64,000 nucleotides of DNA, from NCBI GenBank assembly GCA_964560025.1, contig CAZLKC010000001.1:89010-153009 (forward strand). The letters are read 5' to 3'. Origin of the DNA: an uncultured Dehalococcoidia bacterium (GTDB taxonomy: Bacteria > Chloroflexota > Dehalococcoidia > Lucifugimonadales > Australimonadaceae). Made by a program: the position numbers and the translations under genes. Below, piece after piece: positions 9,328-31,321 of this stretch; the stretch's first letter is position 1; each line of letters opens with the position of its first letter. The notes beneath the pieces were generated by a model that was not told the origin of the DNA, ran no database searches, and saw only the letters and a list, made by a program, of their open reading frames with translations.

Positions 9328-9777
9328 CTACTCCGTTCCCAACTCGGCGGCGATGCGCCGGGTGAACTCCTGCCGCGTCTCCTCCGCTTTGCGCTTGACG
9401 GCGGAGTTGCCTAGCGTCGCCATACGCCCCGTCAGCGCGAAGTCGAGGCCATACTTGACCAGCGTTCCGCCGCTGGCCGCCTCTTCCAATTCAAGGGAGA
9501 GGCGATTGAGCTTGAGTCGGTTGCCCATCCGGTCTTGGCCGCCCCCCGACACCACCACCCGCTCCATCTCCACCGCCTCCTCGACGGCGAGGTCGAGGTC
9601 GAAGGCGACCTTGAACGGGCCGACGCGCTGGACGACGCGGGCGCGGTAGGCGTCCGGCCCGGCCGATTCGATCGACTCGCAGCCCGGCAGGCAGCGGGCG
9701 ACGCGCGGCAGGTCCCAGAAGAGGCGCCACACTTCGCTCGGCGGCGCGCCCACGCTGAATTCGTCGCTCATCTGCAT
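9328..9777 (-). CDS. CoxG-like SRPBCC family protein (carbon monoxide dehydrogenase subunit G family)
   Basis: 149 aa, FSVGAPPSEVWRLFWDLPRVARCLPGCES... matches the CoxG/SRPBCC N-terminal pattern. Sits between the LLM and UbiD genes on the same strand with 3-6 nt gaps. Confidence 0.7.
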   Translation of the reverse strand: MQMSDEFSVGAPPSEVWRLFWDLPRVARCLPGCESIESAGPDAYRARVVQRVGPFKVAFDLDLAVEEAVEMERVVVSGGGQDRMGNRLKLNRLSLELEEAASGGTLVKYGLDFALTGRMATLGNSAVKRKAEETRQEFTRRIAAELGTE

Positions 9778-21538: not shown

Positions 21539-21710
21539 AATTGCGGTCCTCGTTTCGGCTGTGCGCTGCGCCTAGTCTACACCAGCGTGAGGCGGGGATA
21601 GGGCGGCTGCGGCGGCCCTGCGCCCGTCTGCGGTACAGTGCCTCAGACGGGCAACCTACGCTGGCTCACGACTCGGCGGGAGGGCAAGCCGTCGCAAGGA
21701 GGAGGTCATC

Positions 21711-22157
21711 ATGCCGCACGAAGCATTCATCGAAGCAGCCATCGCCGAGGCGCTCGCTTCCAAGGCGGACGGCGGGCAGCCGTTCGGCGCGGTGCTGGTC
21801 AAGGACGGCGAGGTCGTGGCGCGCGGGCGCAACCGCGTGAACCAGGACGGCGACCCCACCTCGCACGCCGAGCTGAACCTGCTGCGCGACTTCTGCTCGT
21901 CGCGGCGCCAGGCCGACCTGCGCAGCTACGCCGTCTACGCCAGTTTCGAGCCGTGCGCGATGTGCGCCGCCGCCATCGCGTGGGCGGGCGTGTCCCTCGT
22001 CGCCTACGGCGCCGACGCCGGCGACCTGCCCTCCGCCTACCCGCGCCGCGCCAACCCGCTCTCTTGCGCCGAGGTGCTGGAGCGGTTCGGCAGCGAGGCG
22101 GTCGTCGCGCCGCACGTGCTCCGCGCGCAAGCCGCCGCCGTGTTCGGGGACGGCTAG
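21711..22157 (+). CDS. CMP/dCMP-type zinc deaminase (nucleoside/guanine/tRNA-adenosine deaminase family)
   Basis: 148 aa with the HAELNLL (H-A-E) and PCAMCAAAI (PCxxC) zinc-binding motifs. GGAGGAGG is 6 nt upstream of the ATG. Confidence 0.85.
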   Translation: MPHEAFIEAAIAEALASKADGGQPFGAVLVKDGEVVARGRNRVNQDGDPTSHAELNLLRDFCSSRRQADLRSYAVYASFEPCAMCAAAIAWAGVSLVAYGADAGDLPSAYPRRANPLSCAEVLERFGSEAVVAPHVLRAQAAAVFGDG

Positions 22158-22211
22158 CGGCGCATTCCCTATACTGCCCTCCGGCGATTACAACGCGTCG
22201 GGAGGGCAAGC

Positions 22212-23066
22212 GTGCCATTCATTTCCACGAGCGGGCTGACCGAACAGGCCACCGAGAAGACCATCGAGATCGACGGCGTGCCCGTGGTCTACCACGACGT
22301 AGGCGAGGGGCCGCCCGCGCTCTTCCTCCATTCGCACGGCCCCGGCACGACCGCGTGGATCACGTGGCACAAGGTGGTGGACGAGTTCGCCAAGCACTTC
22401 CGCTGCATCCTCTACGATATGCCCAACTTCACGAAGACGGGGCCGATGGTCTACGAGGACGGCAGCCACGCCGTCCAGGCGCGCGTCGGCGCGCAGTTGC
22501 TGGACGCGCTGGGCATCGAACGCTGTCCGTGGGTCGGCAACTCGCAGGGCGGCCAATCCGCCCTCAGCGCTGCCATTCGCCACCCCGAGCGCGTCTCGAA
22601 GTTCGTCCTGGGCGGCAGCCACATCGCCACCGGCGGCGACATCTACTTCCTCGCCACGCGCCCCGACGAGGCGGGCTACTTCACCGAATTGGCTCGGCGC
22701 GACCCGACGCGGGAGCATATGCGCCTCTACCTCTCGCGGCACATCTACAACCCGGCGCTGATTACGGACGAGTTAGTGGACTATGTGCGCGACCACTACG
22801 TCTCGCGTCCCGACCTGATAGAAGCGCGCAACGCCTCCAAGAGCGTGCCGCACGACTACCGCCCGCAGGTTCCGAGCGTGCGCGCGCCCGCGATGCTGGT
22901 GCATGGCCGCCACGACAAGATGGTGCCGCTGGAGATCAGCATCACGCTGGTGGGCTTGCTGCCGGACGCGCGGTTGCTCGTATTCAACGACACGGCGCAC
23001 TGGACGCCCTTCGAGAATCCCAGGGAGTACGCGCGGCACGTCCTGCCCTTCCTGCTCGACGGCTAG
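22212..23066 (+). CDS. Alpha/beta-fold hydrolase (C-C/C-N bond hydrolase, BphD/NicD-like)
   Basis: 284 aa, GTG start. LFLHSHGPG, nucleophile elbow VGNSQGG and C-terminal FNDTAHWTPFENP (His). Confidence 0.8.
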   Translation: MPFISTSGLTEQATEKTIEIDGVPVVYHDVGEGPPALFLHSHGPGTTAWITWHKVVDEFAKHFRCILYDMPNFTKTGPMVYEDGSHAVQARVGAQLLDALGIERCPWVGNSQGGQSALSAAIRHPERVSKFVLGGSHIATGGDIYFLATRPDEAGYFTELARRDPTREHMRLYLSRHIYNPALITDELVDYVRDHYVSRPDLIEARNASKSVPHDYRPQVPSVRAPAMLVHGRHDKMVPLEISITLVGLLPDARLLVFNDTAHWTPFENPREYARHVLPFLLDG

Positions 23067-23072
23067 CGGCGC

Positions 23073-24497
23073 ATGGCCCAGGCGCCGACGGCATCGGGGT
23101 GGCGGCGCGGCCGCCAGATGGGGCTGCAATGGCTCTTCGACATCGCAGGCCCCTTCCACATCAGCGGCGCGGTCGTCCTGCTGCCTTTCATCCAGGACGA
23201 CTACGCCATCTCCACCGCCGCCGTCGCGTGGGCCGTCGTCGTCTACTTCCTCTCCAGCGCCGTCTTCACCCTCCCCGCCGCCTACCTTGGCAACGCCGCC
23301 GGGCGCAAGAAACTCGTACTCATCGGCGTCGCCATCGACATGCTCTCGCAGTTCGCCCTCTTCCTCGCGCCTCCCTTCTGGCTGTTCGTGCTGGTGCGCA
23401 TGGCAGGCGGGGCAGGGAATGCGATGGTCGTCCCGAACCTCAACCCCATCACCATCGGCGTGTTTCCTCGCCAGCGGCGCGGGCGCGCTATCGGCTACAT
23501 CATGCTTGGCCTCGGATTCGGCATCGTCCTCAGCACCGTCGTCGCCGGCGTGATTGCCGACGCCGCCGGGTGGCGCTACCTGTTCCTGCTCACGGGCGTT
23601 ATGTACACGGCGCTGTTCGCAGGCGTGGCGCTCTTCTCGCGCGAATCGGAGGCGCCGAGCTCGCTGCCGGGCGCCCTCAAGCGCATGGACTATTCCGGCA
23701 TGGTGTTGCTCACGGCGCTGCTGGTGTGCCTCACCGTCGGCGTGCAGCGCCTGGGCAGCTCGCTGACCGACCCGTTGGGGTGGTCGCTCGGCGGCGTGGC
23801 TATCCCGCTCGCGGCGGTGTTCGTCTACGCCGAGCGCCGAGCCGCCCGCCCCTTGGCGCCGCTCGACCTGTTTGCGCAGAAGGGATTCTCCGCCGCCGTG
23901 GGCCAGCTCTTCACAATGACGATCATGCGCTCCGCCCACGCCTTCCTCCTGCCTTTCTACCTCATCCAAGGCCTGGGCTGGAGCGGGTCGCTCGCGGGCA
24001 GCATCCAGATTGCCTTGAACGCGGGGCAGCCGGTGTTCGGCCCCATTGTCGGGGCGCTGGCGGACAGGACGGGCGCGCGCGTCTTCATCCTGCTTGCGCA
24101 GGCGCTGATGGCGGGAGGCACCATCGCGCTGATGTCGCTCGGCGCGGCGCCCGGCCCCGTGCTCGTGGCGCTCTCACTCGGCCTCATCGGCGCATCCCTC
24201 GGCGTCTTCAGGCCGCCCAACCTGAAAGTCATCTACGACGCGGTGCCGCCCGAGCGGATGAGCCTCGCCCCTGGCGTGCAGGTGCTGACCGCGCACACCA
24301 GCAACGCCATCGGCTCGTCGTTCGTCGCCGTCATGCTCGCCTTCTTCCTGAGCAGCGGCGCGGCCAACGCCGCCGCCTACCGGAATTCCCTGCTGGTGAT
24401 GCTCGCCGGGTTTCTCATCGTCAACGGCGCGATATGGGTGTTTGTTCGCGGCGGACGCGCGGCGGCGCGCGCTGAACGCGACGCAAGGGCAAGATAG
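23073..24497 (+). CDS. MFS transporter (14-helix drug/metabolite:H+ antiporter-like)
   Basis: 474 aa, strongly hydrophobic. Has the MFS motif A-like GNAAGRKKLVLIG and length typical of the DHA2-type. Confidence 0.8.
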   Translation: MAQAPTASGWRRGRQMGLQWLFDIAGPFHISGAVVLLPFIQDDYAISTAAVAWAVVVYFLSSAVFTLPAAYLGNAAGRKKLVLIGVAIDMLSQFALFLAPPFWLFVLVRMAGGAGNAMVVPNLNPITIGVFPRQRRGRAIGYIMLGLGFGIVLSTVVAGVIADAAGWRYLFLLTGVMYTALFAGVALFSRESEAPSSLPGALKRMDYSGMVLLTALLVCLTVGVQRLGSSLTDPLGWSLGGVAIPLAAVFVYAERRAARPLAPLDLFAQKGFSAAVGQLFTMTIMRSAHAFLLPFYLIQGLGWSGSLAGSIQIALNAGQPVFGPIVGALADRTGARVFILLAQALMAGGTIALMSLGAAPGPVLVALSLGLIGASLGVFRPPNLKVIYDAVPPERMSLAPGVQVLTAHTSNAIGSSFVAVMLAFFLSSGAANAAAYRNSLLVMLAGFLIVNGAIWVFVRGGRAAARAERDARAR

Positions 24498-25741: not shown

Positions 25742-26599
25742 ATGCGCAACCCGTACTTGCGGGAAGGCGCTATGGAGCGGGCTCCCATCAGAATCATCGC
25801 CCACCGAGGCGCAAGCGCGTGCGCCCCTGAGAACACGCTCGCCGCGTTCGACGCCGCCGTCCGTATGGGGGTCCACGAGGTCGAGGCCGACGCGCGCCTC
25901 TCTGCCGACGGCCACCCGGTGCTGATCCACGACGCCGCGTTGGAGCGCACGACGAACGGCGCGGGACTCGTCCGCCACACCTCTCTCTCCGACCTCGCGA
26001 GCCTCGACGCGGGTTCGTGGTGGGCGCCGCTGCCCGACAAGCTCGCCCCCTTTGCCGGACAACCGCCGCTCGGCGGATTCGAGGGCGAGGCCGTGCCTGC
26101 GCTGCGCGACCTGTTCAATGCCTTCGGCGACGCGCCGGTCTACCACGTAGACCTCAAAGACGACGGCCCAGCCCTCGCGCGCCGCGTCGCCGGCACGGCA
26201 GCCGCCGTCGGCCTCTCCTCCAACGTCATCGTAACCGGCCACAGCCTCGCCGCTCTCGAAGAGGCGCGCCGCATCGAGAGCCGCATCCGCATCGGATGGA
26301 CGATGACCCGCGCGGGAGGGACGCTCGACTCCGACCATGTCCGCCTCGCCGCCGAACGCTGCGTCACCGAGGTGGTGATGAACGCGGCGGAGGCGCCGCG
26401 CTGGCTCGTGCGCTACGCGCGCCGCCAGGGCTTGCACGTTCGTCTGTTCGGGTTGGCGGACGGCGACGCGGTGGCGGAGGCCGTGCACGCCGGCGCGTCC
26501 GCCCTCACGCTGGACTATCCCAGCGCCGCCGCCGTGGAGCGCATCGGCGCGCGCGCCGAGTTCGAACCCCTGCCTTCGCGGTTGGGGTTGGCGGCGTGA
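25742..26599 (+). CDS. Glycerophosphodiester phosphodiesterase (GDPD family)
   Basis: IIAHRGASACAPENTLAAFDAA and VEADARLSADGHPVLIHD motifs. The real start may be the second Met at 25772. Confidence 0.85.
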   Translation: MRNPYLREGAMERAPIRIIAHRGASACAPENTLAAFDAAVRMGVHEVEADARLSADGHPVLIHDAALERTTNGAGLVRHTSLSDLASLDAGSWWAPLPDKLAPFAGQPPLGGFEGEAVPALRDLFNAFGDAPVYHVDLKDDGPALARRVAGTAAAVGLSSNVIVTGHSLAALEEARRIESRIRIGWTMTRAGGTLDSDHVRLAAERCVTEVVMNAAEAPRWLVRYARRQGLHVRLFGLADGDAVAEAVHAGASALTLDYPSAAAVERIGARAEFEPLPSRLGLAA

Positions 26600-27876
26600 C
26601 GGAGCTGCTGCTCGCGGCGGAGCTGAGCGCTACGGGCGTCGGCTCCGTTCTCCACGTCAACGACAAGGGCGGCTCCTTCGGCGGCACGGAGCAGTACATC
26701 GCCAGCGTCGCCGCGGGGTTGGCCGAGGCGGGCATCGCCAATCACCTCGCCTACGGCGAACTCAGCGGCCCAACGGCGCCGCATCTCTCCCACTTCCGCA
26801 TCGACGGCCTCGCCTCCCGCACGCCCGATCCGCACGCGCCCGCGCAGTTGGCCGACCTCGTGCGGCGGACGCGCCCCGATCTGGTCTACGTGCACAACGT
26901 CTTCGACCACCGCATCATCGAGGCGCTCGACCCGCCCGGCCGCCGCAACCTGCTCGTCTGGTACGTCCACGACCACTACCTCACCTGCTTGGCCGAACTC
27001 CGCACTATCCGCTCCGGCGGCGCTCACGCAGAGTGCGAACTACCCCTGTCGAGCGGCTGCCTCGCGCATATGGCCGTCGGCGGCTGCTGGCGGCGCGGCG
27101 GCGAGACGGCGCTGCCCCACCTGTCCGCGCGGGAGGCGCTGCTCCGATCGGCGCGGCGCGCCGACGCGCTGGTCGTCGTCAGCGCCTATATGCGGCGCAG
27201 CCTCGAGTCGCAGCCCTCGCTGCGAAACTCCCCCGTCTACACGCTGCCCCGCCACATCGAAGCGCCGCCCCCCGGCGCGACGCCTGACGGCGAGCGGGGA
27301 CGCAGCATCCTGTTCGCCGGGCGCATCGCGCCGATGAAGGGATTGCACCTCGCCATCGACGCAGCGGCGCAGGCCGGCGGCGCCAAGCTGCTGGTCGCGG
27401 GACCCGTAGAGGACGAGGGCTACTGGCGGCGGTGCACGGCGCAAGCCGAGGAGGCGCGGCGGCGCGACCCGTCGTTCGCTATGGCCTATCTGGGCCACCT
27501 GAGCGTGCGGGAGCTGAGCGGGTTGTACGCCCGCGCAGCGGTGACCGTCGTCCCCTCCATCTGGGCCGAGCCGCTGGGCGTCGTCCCCGCCGAGGCGGTG
27601 ACGCGCGGCTCGGCGGTGGCGGCATTCGACCGGGGCGGCCTTTCCACGTGGTTCGAAGGGGGCGCAACGGGGCTGCTGGTGGAGCCGGGCGACGCGGACG
27701 CGCTCGCGCGCGCCATCCGCACGCTGCTCGACGACGACGCGCTGCGCCGCCAGGCCGTCGAACGGGGCGCGCGGCTGGTGCGCAAGCGCTACTCGACCGC
27801 CGCGCACCTCGAGGCGCTGGGGCACGTCTGCCTCGCCGCGAGGGCGAACCGCGCAGCGCCTGTGCCTACGCCGTAA
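26596..27876 (+). CDS. GT4-family (group 1) glycosyltransferase
   Basis: GTG start inside track ORF 26017..27876, overlapping the GDPD stop (GTGA). The C-terminal half has the GT-B/GT4 motifs ILFAGRIAPMKG and VVPSIWAEPLGVVPAEA...G (E-x7-E region). Confidence 0.8.
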   Translation: MTELLLAAELSATGVGSVLHVNDKGGSFGGTEQYIASVAAGLAEAGIANHLAYGELSGPTAPHLSHFRIDGLASRTPDPHAPAQLADLVRRTRPDLVYVHNVFDHRIIEALDPPGRRNLLVWYVHDHYLTCLAELRTIRSGGAHAECELPLSSGCLAHMAVGGCWRRGGETALPHLSAREALLRSARRADALVVVSAYMRRSLESQPSLRNSPVYTLPRHIEAPPPGATPDGERGRSILFAGRIAPMKGLHLAIDAAAQAGGAKLLVAGPVEDEGYWRRCTAQAEEARRRDPSFAMAYLGHLSVRELSGLYARAAVTVVPSIWAEPLGVVPAEAVTRGSAVAAFDRGGLSTWFEGGATGLLVEPGDADALARAIRTLLDDDALRRQAVERGARLVRKRYSTAAHLEALGHVCLAARANRAAPVPTP

Positions 27877-28006
27877 AGGAACCCGTCCCTTTGACGGCGC
27901 TTTCCGTAGAGACGCTGCTTAACCGCGCCTTAAAGTCGCCGCGCGTCCTCCGTTAACAGCCGCCTCGTAACCTCTCGGCGTACCCATCGGTTGGAGTGAT
28001 ACCCGC

Positions 28007-29935
28007 ATGAACCTGACGAACTCGTTCCTCAACCCGCGCCGCCTGGCGCTCGTCGCACTCGTAGCCATGGCCGCCGTGCTCGCCGCGTGCGGCAGCGACC
28101 CGACGCCCACGCCCAGGCCGACGGCGACGCCCACGCCCTCCTCGGGCGGCGGGCAGCCCGCCGCTCCCACGGCCACGCCCGTGCCGACGGCGACGCCCGT
28201 CCCCAGCCTCTCGGGCAGCATCGAGGTGGACGGCTCGTCCACCGTCTTCCCCGTTACCGAGGCCGTCGCCGAGGAGTTCCGCAAGGTTCACCCGCGCGTC
28301 CAGGTCAACGTCGCCGTCTCCGGCACCGGCGGTGGCTTCAAGCGCTTCACCGTCGGCGAGACCGACATCTCCAACGCCTCCCGGCCCATCAAGTCGTCCG
28401 AGGCGGACGCTGCCGCCGCCAACGGCATCGAGTACGTCGAACTGCGCGTCGGCACCGACGGCCTCTCCGTTATGGTCAACCCGCAGAACGACTTCGTCGA
28501 CTGCTTGACCGTCGAAGAGTTGAAGATGATCTGGGAGCCCGGCTCCACCATCGACAACTGGAACGAGGTGCGGAGCAGCTTCCCCGACGCGCGCATCCGT
28601 CTGTACGGGCCTGACACCGACTCCGGCACGTTCGACTACTTCACCGAAGAGATCAACGGCGAGGCGCAGGCCTCCCGCTCCGACTACACCGCCAGCGCCG
28701 ACGACAACGTGCTCGTCCAAGGCATCAGCGGCGACCGCAACGCCCTCGGCTACTTCGGCTACGCCTACTACCAGGAGAACGCCGACAAGTTGCGCGCCAT
28801 CGCCGTCGACAACGGCGACGGATGCGTCGCGCCCGAGCCCGCCACCATCGAGAACGGCTCCTACACGCCGCTCTCTCGCCCGCTGTTCATCTACGTGAAC
28901 CTTGCCTCACTCGAGCGGCCGGAGATGCTCGCCTTCGTGGACTTCTACATGCAGCACGGCGCGGCGCTGGCCGCCGAGGTAGGCTACGTCCCCGCCGATG
29001 CCGCCACCTACAACAACAATCTCCGCCTCATCCGCGGCGAGATTGCGGCACTTCCCACTCCCACTCCCGCGCCGAGGCCAACCGCGACGCCCGTTCCCAG
29101 CCTCTCGGGCAGCATCGAAGTGGACGGCTCGTCCACCGTCTTCCCCGTTACCGAGGCCGTCGCCGAGGAGTTCCGCAAGGTTCACCCGCGCGTCCAGGTC
29201 AACGTCGCCGTCTCCGGCACCGGCGGTGGCTTCAAGCGCTTCACCGTCGGCGAGACCGACATCTCCAACGCCTCCCGGCCCATCAAGTCGTCCGAGGCGG
29301 ACGCTGCCGCCGCCAACGGCATCGAGTACGTCGAACTGCGCGTCGGCACCGACGGCCTCTCCGTTATGGTCAACCCGCAGAACGACTTCGTCGACTGCTT
29401 GACCGTCGAAGAGTTGAAGATGATCTGGGAGCCCGGCTCCACCATCGACAACTGGAACGAGGTGCGGAGCAGCTTCCCCGACGCGCGCATCCGTCTGTAC
29501 GGGCCTGACACCGACTCCGGCACGTTCGACTACTTCACCGAAGAGATCAACGGCGAGGCGCAGGCCTCCCGCTCCGACTACACCGCCAGCGCCGACGACA
29601 ACGTGCTCGTCCAAGGCATCAGCGGCGACCGCAACGCCCTCGGCTACTTCGGCTACGCCTACTACCAGGAGAACGCCGACAAGTTGCGCGCCATCGCCGT
29701 CGACAACGGCGACGGATGCGTCGCGCCCGAGCCCGCCACCATCGAGAACGGCTCCTACACGCCGCTCTCCCGCCCGCTGTTCATCTACGTGAACCTTGCT
29801 TCTATGGCGCGTCCCGAGATGCGCGCGTTCGTGGACTTCTACATGGAGCACGGCGCGGCGCTGACCGCTGAGGTAGGCTACGTCGCCGCCGACGCCGCCA
29901 CCTACGCAGCCAACAGGAGGGAAGCGGGCCTCTAA
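28007..29935 (+). CDS. pstS: Lipoprotein with two tandem PstS-family (phosphate-binding, PBP type 2) domains
   Basis: 642 aa. Signal peptide with lipobox LAAC, a PT-rich linker, then two roughly 270-aa copies starting [28 protein letters not shown]...[10 protein letters not shown]...SNASRPIK, the PstS-type anion-binding motifs. A second PT linker separates the copies. Confidence 0.85.
28190..29010 (+). repeat. Tandem direct repeat, copy 1 (PstS domain unit; period 894 bp)
   Basis: Aligns with 29084..29904 at a constant offset of 894 bp. By reading I found only 3 substitutions between about 28200 and 28895. The reverse-strand track ORFs 28288..28629 and 29182..29523 give identical 113-aa translations. 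Confidence 0.9.
29084..29904 (+). repeat. Tandem direct repeat, copy 2
   Basis: See copy 1. Divergence is concentrated in the last ~110 bp ([13 protein letters not shown].. vs [13 protein letters not shown]..). Confidence 0.9.
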
Positions 29936-30050
29936 CCTCAACGAGAACGCAGCGGCTAGTCCGCTGCCTCTCCCAACAGCCGGCCGCGGTCCACCCACTC
30001 TCCTCCCACCGGGCCGCGGTCGGCTGACCTTTACCCCCCCACAGCCGTCT

Positions 30051-30908
30051 ATGCGAACACCGACCCTGCTGCGCGCCTGCATCGCCGAGACCGCCGGAAC
30101 CTACCTTCTCGTCCTCTTCAGCATCGCCACCGTCGCCTCGGCCGTCCTCACTCCGTCGGGGCTGCACCTGTGGCAGGTGGCGTCCATCACCGGATTCGGC
30201 GTCGCGCTGGCGATCTACGTAACCGCCGCCGCCTCCGGCGCGCACCTGAACCCCGCCGTCAGCCTCGCCTTCGCCCTGCGCCGCCCGCGCGACTTTCCGC
30301 CGCGCCGCCTGCCCGCCTACTGGGCGGCGCAGTTGGTCGGCGCCGTCCTGGCGGGCGCGACGCTCTACGCCGTCTACGGCGCGCTCATACGCCGCTTCGA
30401 GACCGCCAACGGCATCACGCGCGGCGAGCCGGAGAGCGCCCTCTCCGCCATGGTGTTCGGACAGTACTTCCCCGACCCTGGGATGTTCGGCGCGGGCGCT
30501 GACGCCACCTTCTCCATCTCGCCTTGGGCCGCCGCGGGCGTCGAGGCGTTCGGAACGGTCATCCTCGTGCTGGTCATCTTCGCCCTGGTGGACGCGCGCA
30601 ACACGAGCCTCGCCGCCAAGTCGCTCGCCCCCTTCTTCATCGGCTTCACCGTAGCGGTGCTCATCGCCCTCTTCGCACCGCTCACCCAAGCGGGCTGGAA
30701 CCCCGCCCGCGACTTCGGCCCGCGCCTGATCACCCTGTTCGCCGGGTGGGGCGCCGTCGCCATCCCCGGCCCCTCTAACGGCTTCTGGGTCTACACCGTC
30801 GGGCCGATGATCGGCGCGCCCATCGGCGCTCTGCTCTACGACATCCTCATACGTCCCGCCTTGCCCCAACGCGGCGGCAGCGGCAACGCCGACGGAGACG
30901 CTCTATGA
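30051..30908 (+). CDS. MIP-family channel, aquaglyceroporin type (GlpF/AqpS-like)
   Basis: 285 aa with two NPA boxes, HLNPAVSLA and GWNPARDFGPR; the NPARD form is typical of glycerol/As(III)-conducting members. The stop overlaps the arsC start (ATGA). Confidence 0.85.
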   Translation: MRTPTLLRACIAETAGTYLLVLFSIATVASAVLTPSGLHLWQVASITGFGVALAIYVTAAASGAHLNPAVSLAFALRRPRDFPPRRLPAYWAAQLVGAVLAGATLYAVYGALIRRFETANGITRGEPESALSAMVFGQYFPDPGMFGAGADATFSISPWAAAGVEAFGTVILVLVIFALVDARNTSLAAKSLAPFFIGFTVAVLIALFAPLTQAGWNPARDFGPRLITLFAGWGAVAIPGPSNGFWVYTVGPMIGAPIGALLYDILIRPALPQRGGSGNADGDAL

Positions 30909-31321
30909 CCGCTCCCTACGTCCTCTTCCTCTGCGTCCACAACGCGGGGCGCAGCCAGATGGCCCGCGCCCTCTTCGACCGCGCGGCCATCGAGCGCGGC
31001 CTCGCCGTGCGCGCCCACTCCGCCGGGACGCAGCCCGCCGGGCGCGTCCATCCTGTCGTCGAGGAGGCCATGCGCGAACTCGGCGAAGACCTCTCCGCCG
31101 CCGCGCCCCAGTTGATGACCAATGCGATGGTCGAGCAGGCCGTCCGCGTCATCACGATGGGCTGCGCCGTAGACGCGGAAGCATGCCCCGCCATAGCCCT
31201 CCGCGACGTTGAAGACTGGGGCCTCCCCGACCCCAAAGGCCAACCCCTAGCCGACGTGCGCCGCATCCGCGACGACATCGCCGCGCGCGTCAACGCCCTG
31301 CTCGACGCTCTAGCGCGTTAG
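30905..31321 (+). CDS. arsC: Arsenate reductase, LMW-PTPase family, thioredoxin-coupled type
   Basis: 138 aa. P-loop LFLCVHNAGRSQMA (CX5R) plus the downstream Cys pair in MGCAVDAEAC, matching the three-cysteine relay of the pI258/B. subtilis type. Confidence 0.85.
   Translation: MTAPYVLFLCVHNAGRSQMARALFDRAAIERGLAVRAHSAGTQPAGRVHPVVEEAMRELGEDLSAAAPQLMTNAMVEQAVRVITMGCAVDAEACPAIALRDVEDWGLPDPKGQPLADVRRIRDDIAARVNALLDALAR

Follow-up and report, generated by a model that had tools for sequence, protein, structure and literature searches.

The window analyzed here, a 64,000-nucleotide (64-kb) stretch from an uncultured Dehalococcoidia bacterium (NCBI GenBank assembly GCA_964560025.1, contig CAZLKC010000001.1, positions 89,010 to 153,009 of the forward strand), encodes at positions 28007 to 29935 a lipoprotein of 642 amino acids (aa) with two PstS phosphate-binding domains whose coding sequences are identical over 650 bp. 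This is likely a real two-module PstS lipoprotein that arose by an older duplication within the gene and whose core was recently homogenized by recombination, in a process that extends across the family; its likely role is in phosphate starvation. The layout of the gene, numbered from the first base of the window, is as follows:

28007–29935, + strand: coding sequence of the two-domain PstS-family lipoprotein (642 aa), the only open reading frame (ORF) listed there, with a GGAG ribosome-binding site at 27992–27995.
28007–28090, + strand: signal peptide with the lipobox L-A-A-C (residues 25–28), from the translation; the Cys28 codon TGC occupies 28088–28090.
28091–28204, + strand: Pro/Thr-rich (PT-rich) spacer from the lipid anchor to domain 1 (aa 29–66), from the repeat search and a predicted local distance difference test score (pLDDT) below 50 for residues 25–64.
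28205–29029, + strand: PstS domain 1 (aa 67–341), from phmmer limits, PF12849/TIGR02136 and a mostly high pLDDT, with 4jwo as the nearest PDB entry.
28226–28875, + strand: first copy of the exact 650-bp repeat (base i versus base i+894), read as the latest conversion tract.
28876–29098, + strand: diverged tail of domain 1 plus a 23-aa linker, a unique in-frame domain-domain junction; linker pLDDT below 50 (residues 352–362).
29099–29923, + strand: PstS domain 2 (aa 365–639), from phmmer limits, PF12849/TIGR02136 and the structural model.
29120–29769, + strand: second copy of the exact 650-bp repeat (base i versus base i+894).

Base-by-base comparison at an offset of 894 reveals no mismatch over 650 bp (28226–28875 against 29120–29769) and exactly three between 28190 and 28905 (at 28201, 28225 and 28876). 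A first reading made from the DNA letters without database searches (the sequence-only reading) had described an 894-bp tandem, nearly identical over about 700 bp with three substitutions and diverging in the last ~110 bp and in the PT linker, and both parts of that description hold: the domain end (28906–29010, ~105 bp) carries 14 mismatches (~87% identity), with similarity ending at 29012, and the 5′ PT-rich part (28161–28225) is diverged too. The 894-bp spacing was also recovered by a repeat search; Tandem Repeats Finder, with a longest period of 500, missed this unit and reported only an 18-bp PT repeat. The repeat span as a whole contains 26 mismatches in 850 aligned bases. An exact run of at least 650 was obtained in 0 of 200,000 random placements of the mismatches, the largest simulated run being 393, and the analytic estimate is ~1e-15.

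At the codon level, the 216 codons of the core show no difference between the copies, synonymous or non-synonymous, against eight synonymous and six non-synonymous differences in the 45 codons of the tail and six synonymous and five non-synonymous differences in the 22 codons of the head. Since synonymous sites show no change in the core but do differ at either edge, the core identity reflects an event at the DNA level; selection on the protein was ruled out as its cause because the synonymous sites of the core are identical as well. The flanks of the repeat are diverged by ~11–13%, synonymous sites included, and the divergence of the tail (~11–13%) is about that of the window from its nearest relatives. 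The tail of domain 1 is only ~80% identical to the relatives, that of domain 2 ~92%. Import of the domain 1 tail from a distant lineage was considered and rejected, its best matches (~80%) still belonging to the same subclade and an older, unconverted copy being the simpler account. An intragenic tandem duplication would therefore have produced the two modules at a time that is not brand new, given edges diverged by 11–13%, and a recent recombination between the copies, whether gene conversion or unequal exchange, would have erased the differences within the central 650 bp.

The protein itself is, as the sequence-only reading had proposed, a single lipoprotein with two PstS domains. TIGR02136 (599.2 bits, cut-off 206.6) and PF12849 (246.8 bits, cut-off 27) each match two stretches of the 642 aa, and the cut-off of TIGR00975, the equivalog of the E. 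coli-type PstS, is not reached (53.6 bits against 205). The lipobox LAAC is preceded by a hydrophobic helix (residues 10–25 in the model), and A27 and C28 are nearly invariant in an alignment of 57 homologues, a motif that points to lipidation at Cys28. The spacer holds a repeat of its own with a spacing of 66 bp (28100–28132 and 28166–28198, 88% identity), and the inter-domain linker at 29060–29092 is a third copy of this PT motif (82% identical).

Structurally, an AlphaFold2 model built from 57 two-domain homologues has a pLDDT of at least 90 for most residues of both domains, low confidence in the spacer and the linker, and a predicted template modeling score (pTM) of 0.56. The model depicts two independent domains arranged as beads on a string and joined by a flexible linker. 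The earlier description of the product as a ‘covalent PstS-PstS dimer’ is overstated, a packed covalent dimer being unsupported at this pTM and with a low-confidence linker. The top 41 Foldseek matches in the PDB are all PstS or phosphate-binding proteins, each covering one domain only. The nearest, the single-domain PstS lipoprotein of Planctomyces limnophilus (PDB 4jwo), aligns end to end with each domain (E 1e-98; 53% identity by Foldseek, target TM-score 0.87). The motifs G76-S77-S78-T79, A124-S125-R126 and D205-S206-G207-T208 and their domain 2 equivalents are invariant in 57 of 57 two-domain homologues. By analogy with E. coli PstS, the GSST, ASR and DSGT residues are presumably the phosphate contacts; because these loop motifs are invariant in both domains, both sites are probably functional in phosphate binding.

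The survey of related genomes for domain number that had been proposed at the outset was run, and relatives carry one, two or three PstS domains. In a collection of 5.8 billion proteins, the best 120 matches, ranked by summed score and thereby favoring multi-domain proteins, all contain two or three PstS domains (120/120); the few source labels among them point to Chloroflexi or Dehalococcoidia, with one sponge (Geodia) assembly. Domains within a protein are 77.5–100% identical (median 92%, 44 pairs at 98% or more), with a median of 67.6% between proteins. After clustering of the proteins at 85% identity, the nearest neighbor of 61 of 64 domains lies in the same protein. Forms with one, two and three domains share clusters (L014/P0069/P0006 and L018/P0042/P0002). 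The family thus displays the features of concerted evolution: copies more alike within than between genomes, mosaic exact tracts and a variable copy number. The linkers are lineage-specific, each composed of the lineage's own C-terminal tail and own N-terminal spacer, and the junction points differ, which argues for repeated duplication events beside conversion. Across Dehalococcoidia, PstS genes would gain and lose whole domain copies, giving the one-, two- and three-domain forms, and these copies would be homogenized repeatedly.

Individual loci illustrate both directions of change. L026, on a complete chromosome, has a single domain that is a mosaic when set against the syntenic two-domain locus L005: most of it resembles domain 1, the 3′ end domain 2. 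Its identity to domain 1 of L005 is 95%, higher than the 91% between the two L005 domains. This mosaic indicates that a domain copy was lost from L026 by recombination. In the three-domain clade of P0001 and P0008, the domains partly pair by position, and the architecture appears to be inherited and only partly homogenized. Two-domain loci account for 5 of the ~72 loci found by pattern among GTDB species representatives, with domains 76–92% identical in DNA; apart from L011, described below, all the others have a single domain. A protein-pattern scan of JGI metagenomes found 64 relatives, none closer than 73%, and all 58 that could be scored have one domain; it yielded no second copy of the window's junction. 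Judged from these counts, the tandem form is a recurrent minority state, which short-read data probably under-count. In a Chloroflexota metagenome-assembled genome (L011, 7938–10196), pstC and pstA are preceded by two neighboring pstS genes that are separate and not fused, which could be an intermediate or an alternative state. Clustering at 50% brought up a few distant PstS-like proteins with two or three domains, the domains of one protein being only 24–28% identical; across P0143, P0248, P0155, P0122 and P0130 the range is 24–68%. The lipoprotein N-terminus of P0130 (1067 aa, three domains) is acidic, which hints at a halophilic source. Tandem forms of PstS therefore have more than one origin and can be ancient; the architecture itself is old and already represented in databases.

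The two-domain form is found in independent assemblies. L078, an independently assembled ENA scaffold, is syntenic with the window, with a glycerophosphodiester phosphodiesterase (GDPD) gene, a GT4-family glycosyltransferase gene, a two-domain PstS gene and a MIP-family channel gene in this order, at 86–88% DNA identity to the window. Its domains are 99.5% identical over 659 bp, its junction is unlike that of the window, and a 100-N gap lies inside the repeat. Three further loci lie on contigs whose names follow the hifiasm style and which are taken here to be long-read assemblies:

L084: domain identity 99.0% over 827 aligned bp, longest exact run 524 bp.
L085: domain identity 97.0% over 846 aligned bp, longest exact run 158 bp.
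L086: domain identity 98.3% over 816 aligned bp, longest exact run 563 bp.

Short-read examples show perfect identity over 842–892 bp, which may come in part from the way an assembler writes repeats. L067 (1–1808), among the closest GTDB relatives (98% aa identity in the best segment, ~90% in DNA), is on a contig that starts inside the PstS domain, as expected from an assembler break at the repeat. Its PstS C-terminus looks frameshifted and its MIP and ArsC are in one ORF, possibly through assembly errors or a fusion.

The upstream region contains a repeat that may connect the gene to phosphate control:

27918–27957, + strand: Pho-box-like direct repeats, CTTAACCG cgc CTTAAAGT ... GTTAAC.

The unit CTTAACCG-cgc-CTTAAAGT occupies 27918–27936, with a further TTAAC at 27953; the TTAAC/TTAAA hexamers are 11 bp apart, and the third TTAAC lies 34 bp beyond the first. 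A TAnnnT −10 candidate, read by eye, follows downstream at 27969–27974. The site thus consists of direct 8-bp repeats with an 11-bp periodicity, just upstream of a candidate −10 element. It resembles the consensus of the SphR/PhoB box of Synechocystis, CTTAACCT, which is built from 8-bp repeats with 3-bp linkers (PMC1906773). The repeat occurs once in the window (0.02 expected) and is conserved in an alignment of five syntenic loci. More broadly, 38 of 68 related loci have TTAAM-N6-YTAAM upstream of pstS, where 0.044 per region would be expected. These include L001, L005, L013, L016–L018, L020, L022–L024, L026, L029–L036 and L038, and further L041, L072, L073, L078, L081, L084, L085 and others; L018 has up to four consecutive TTAAC-type boxes in 11-bp phasing. 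The segment 27918–27957 is a candidate PhoB/SphR-type site that would place the PstS gene under Pho control, and the TTAAC repeats look like a candidate Dehalococcoidia Pho box.

The genes on either side of the PstS gene, and a hairpin behind it, are the following:

25742–26599, + strand: GDPD (PF03009), with its best NCBIfam matches below their cut-offs.
26596–27876, + strand: GT4-family glycosyltransferase, whose gene shares 4 nt with the end of the GDPD gene.
29949–29967, + strand: 7-bp GC-rich hairpin, 14 nt past the PstS stop codon, without a T-run on the + strand.
30051–30908, + strand: MIP-family channel (PF00230; TIGR00861 163.6 against a cut-off of 171.25), with the second NPA motif NPARDFGP.
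30905–31321, + strand: LMWP-type arsenate-reductase-like protein with the motif CVHNAGRS (PF01451), its start overlapping the MIP stop by 4 nt.

The second NPA motif, NPARDFGP, is taken here to be that of GlpF-type aquaglyceroporins, and the best NCBIfam matches of the 30905–31321 product are all arsenate reductases, below their cut-offs. The hairpin may mark a transcript end, a processing point or an attenuation point in front of the MIP and ArsC genes. Neither Rfam nor tRNA scans gave a hit close to the PstS gene, and consensus scans for terminators and promoters are uninformative in this 70% GC DNA. The order GDPD-PstS-MIP(-ArsC) is kept in L007, L008 and L078, and L006 and L067 are syntenic around PstS-MIP; in all five of these loci (L006, L007, L008, L067 and L078) MIP follows PstS. 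The GT4 gene lies between GDPD and PstS only in the window and L078, the two-domain members of the subclade; in L007 and L008 GDPD leads directly to PstS, and L006 has neither a GDPD nor an ArsC match. A role of the GT4 protein in glycolipid remodeling under phosphate stress is only a guess.

Other two-domain genes are located within phoBR-pstS-(arsC)-pstCAB-phoU operons, and two-domain homologues accompany pstC, pstA and pstB in L001, L079, L081, L082, L084 and L086. Homologues of arsC are found beside or inside pst operons in L001, L002, L003, L008, L079 and L080. Their placement varies: the ArsC-like gene follows the aquaglyceroporin in the window (30051–31321) and in L008 (8894–10308), lies between pstS and pstC in L079 (3306–3713), comes directly after pstS in L080 (5450–5857, the next gene being unannotated) and after phoU in L001 (13444–13860), and is at 9741–10223 in L002 and L003. 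In L082/L083 (5316–9384), the genes behind a marine two-domain pstS operon encode Ppx-GppA and PPK2, enzymes of polyphosphate metabolism, a linkage that fits a phosphate-storage and scavenging island.

The neighboring genes fit a phosphate-stress and arsenate-detoxification module. The Pho-box-like promoter would lead to synthesis of the protein under phosphate starvation, and phosphate would be captured at two equivalent sites on a single N-terminal lipid anchor and passed to a PstCAB permease whose genes would lie in another part of the genome. By analogy with GlnPQ (PMC8025302), doubling the sites per anchored molecule would raise the site density near the transporter. GDPD would contribute phosphate scavenged from organic diesters, and the aquaglyceroporin together with the ArsC-like reductase would remove arsenate co-imported with phosphate.

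The sequence-only reading had left a very recent duplication, ongoing gene conversion and an assembly artefact side by side; of these, conversion is best supported, a single recent duplication is disfavored and a pure artefact is unlikely. Under the first of the competing explanations, one very recent 894-bp tandem duplication without later recombination, the copies are simply too young to differ. The 650-bp exact run is what it predicts, junction points that vary by lineage agree with it, and in L078, L079 and L082 the whole unit and junction are 99.5–100% identical, which fits fresh duplications there. In the window, however, the same unit combines an exact core with diverged edges, and for this reason the explanation is a poor fit: 14 mismatches fall in the last 105 bp of the unit and 11 codon differences in the first 22 codons, and the 14 synonymous changes of head and tail stand against 0 in the 216 core codons, a distribution with a probability of ~1e-15 under a uniform clock. 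The unequal likeness of the two tails to the relatives (~80% for domain 1, ~92% for domain 2) also speaks against it, and a single fresh duplication is improbable. An artefact, in which a graph loop doubles the domain of a one-domain genome or two strains or paralogues are chained through a shared core, is very improbable. Graph assemblers do write exact repeats longer than the reads from a single edge, several short-read homologues are suspiciously perfect over 842–892 bp, the repeat of L078 is interrupted by the 100-N gap, the contig of L067 begins within a domain, L006 as the closest GTDB relative has one domain, and the exact protein has no other record. Yet 28876–29098 runs in frame from domain end to domain start, uninterrupted by a stop codon, a signal peptide or intergenic DNA, and since only a real domain-domain junction yields such a unique in-frame segment, a pure artefact is hard to sustain. 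In addition, L078 shares the architecture, identical proteins come from three separate sample assemblies, and two-domain genes are present on hifiasm-style-named contigs or in chromosome-level assemblies.

A third explanation concerns function: the tandem protein would serve arsenate, by sensing or binding it for the aquaglyceroporin-ArsC unit, rather than feed PstCAB. The PstS-MIP-ArsC adjacency is kept in the window, L008 and L067, the 64-kb window contains no pstCAB, and pst genes have been linked to arsenic islands (PMC3834237). However, the domains are ordinary TIGR02136 PstS domains with invariant family motifs, close homologues with two domains belong to canonical phoBR-pstSCAB-phoU operons, whose Pho-box-like repeat recurs in the promoter of the window gene, and arsC is located within plain pst operons too, which fits detoxification of co-imported arsenate. 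This is the least probable of the explanations weighed here.

Several observations weigh against the preferred account of an old duplication with a recently homogenized core and a role in phosphate starvation. L006, L007 and L008, the nearest syntenic genomes (with L006 the closest relative in GTDB), each have a single PstS domain; a look-up of the exact 642-aa protein found no other record, and a 24-mer across the junction had no match in JGI metagenome contigs. The multi-domain result for the top 120 homologues is biased by score, with two domains in only 5 of ~72 GTDB and 0 of 58 JGI loci. As the junctions of the window and L078 differ, part of the pattern seen in the family may stem from independent recent duplications instead of one old duplication followed by conversion. 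Should the window derive from a short-read graph assembly, one collapsed edge may have been the source of both copies; the 0/650 figure would then be a ceiling on identity, and there could in truth be more than two copies. As the sequence-only reading had noticed, no pstCAB genes are adjacent: no pstC or pstA homologue is present in the 64-kb window, where the ABC ATPases are generic only, and the partner transporter is assumed. The window has no second PstS gene, and a BPD_transp_1 domain is absent from both the protein and the window. For any PstS, finally, the benefit of tandem sites would follow by analogy. A bolder extension of the preferred account, in which the tandem PstS arrays of Dehalococcoidia form a recombination-driven ‘accordion’ that gains, loses and homogenizes whole domain copies quickly enough for populations to vary internally, lets phosphate-starved bacteria tune the number of capture sites per transporter and confers a kinetic advantage over single-domain PstS, is doubtful.

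Among known systems, single-domain PstS lipoproteins share the lipobox, the invariant loop motifs and the Pho-box-like promoter with the window protein, and homologues lie in pstSCAB-phoU operons; the window gene differs in encoding two full domains per polypeptide and in standing apart from pstCAB. GlnPQ of Lactococcus lactis has tandem class-II binding domains with a short linker, tethered to the membrane by fusion to the permease (PMC8025302). It resembles the window protein in carrying two tandem binding domains per polypeptide, which multiply sites near the translocator. Unlike the GlnPQ domains, which are permease-fused and differ in specificity and affinity, those of the window protein are lipid-anchored, unfused (the ORF ends after domain 2) and near-identical. 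Orphan or extra pstS genes, as in marine bacteria, cyanophages (PstS, PDB 7xg7 and 7xg8) and cyanobacteria (SphX/PstS), are likewise apart from pstCAB, presumably feed a permease encoded elsewhere and thereby increase phosphate capture when phosphate is scarce, and have the Pho-box control presumed for the window gene (PMC1906773). They raise dosage through separate genes, whereas the window gene does so within one polypeptide.

The alpha C/Rib surface proteins of Gram-positive bacteria contain long repeats that are identical in DNA, variable in copy number and homogenized by recombination. Those repeats are ~80-aa structural modules tied to antigenic variation, whereas each repeat of the window gene amounts to a complete ligand-binding protein of 275 aa. 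A literature search for tandem, duplicated or fused PstS found no relevant paper, and a Foldseek search of the PDB found no solved tandem-PstS structure. Neither the pairing of binding domains in tandem nor conversion between tandem repeats is new as a principle, and databases already list such PstS proteins, with generic names.

High-affinity capture of phosphate sets a limit to growth in oligotrophic seas and, probably, inside sponge hosts. Marine microbes raise PstS dosage via extra gene copies and phage-borne pstS. The locus described here points to a different route, in which PstS modules are multiplied inside one lipoprotein and kept near-identical through recombination, in many Dehalococcoidia/SAR202-type lineages. 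There is a practical side as well: genes of this kind are prone to be collapsed or broken in short-read assemblies, so that their frequency and copy number are probably underestimated. By-products of the analysis are the candidate Dehalococcoidia Pho box and the repeated association of pstS with genes for ArsC and an aquaglyceroporin. Further upstream in the window (21638–24475), a 945-aa ORF has no Pfam match; it is conserved in the syntenic L006 (2837–5083), where the DNA is 86% identical.

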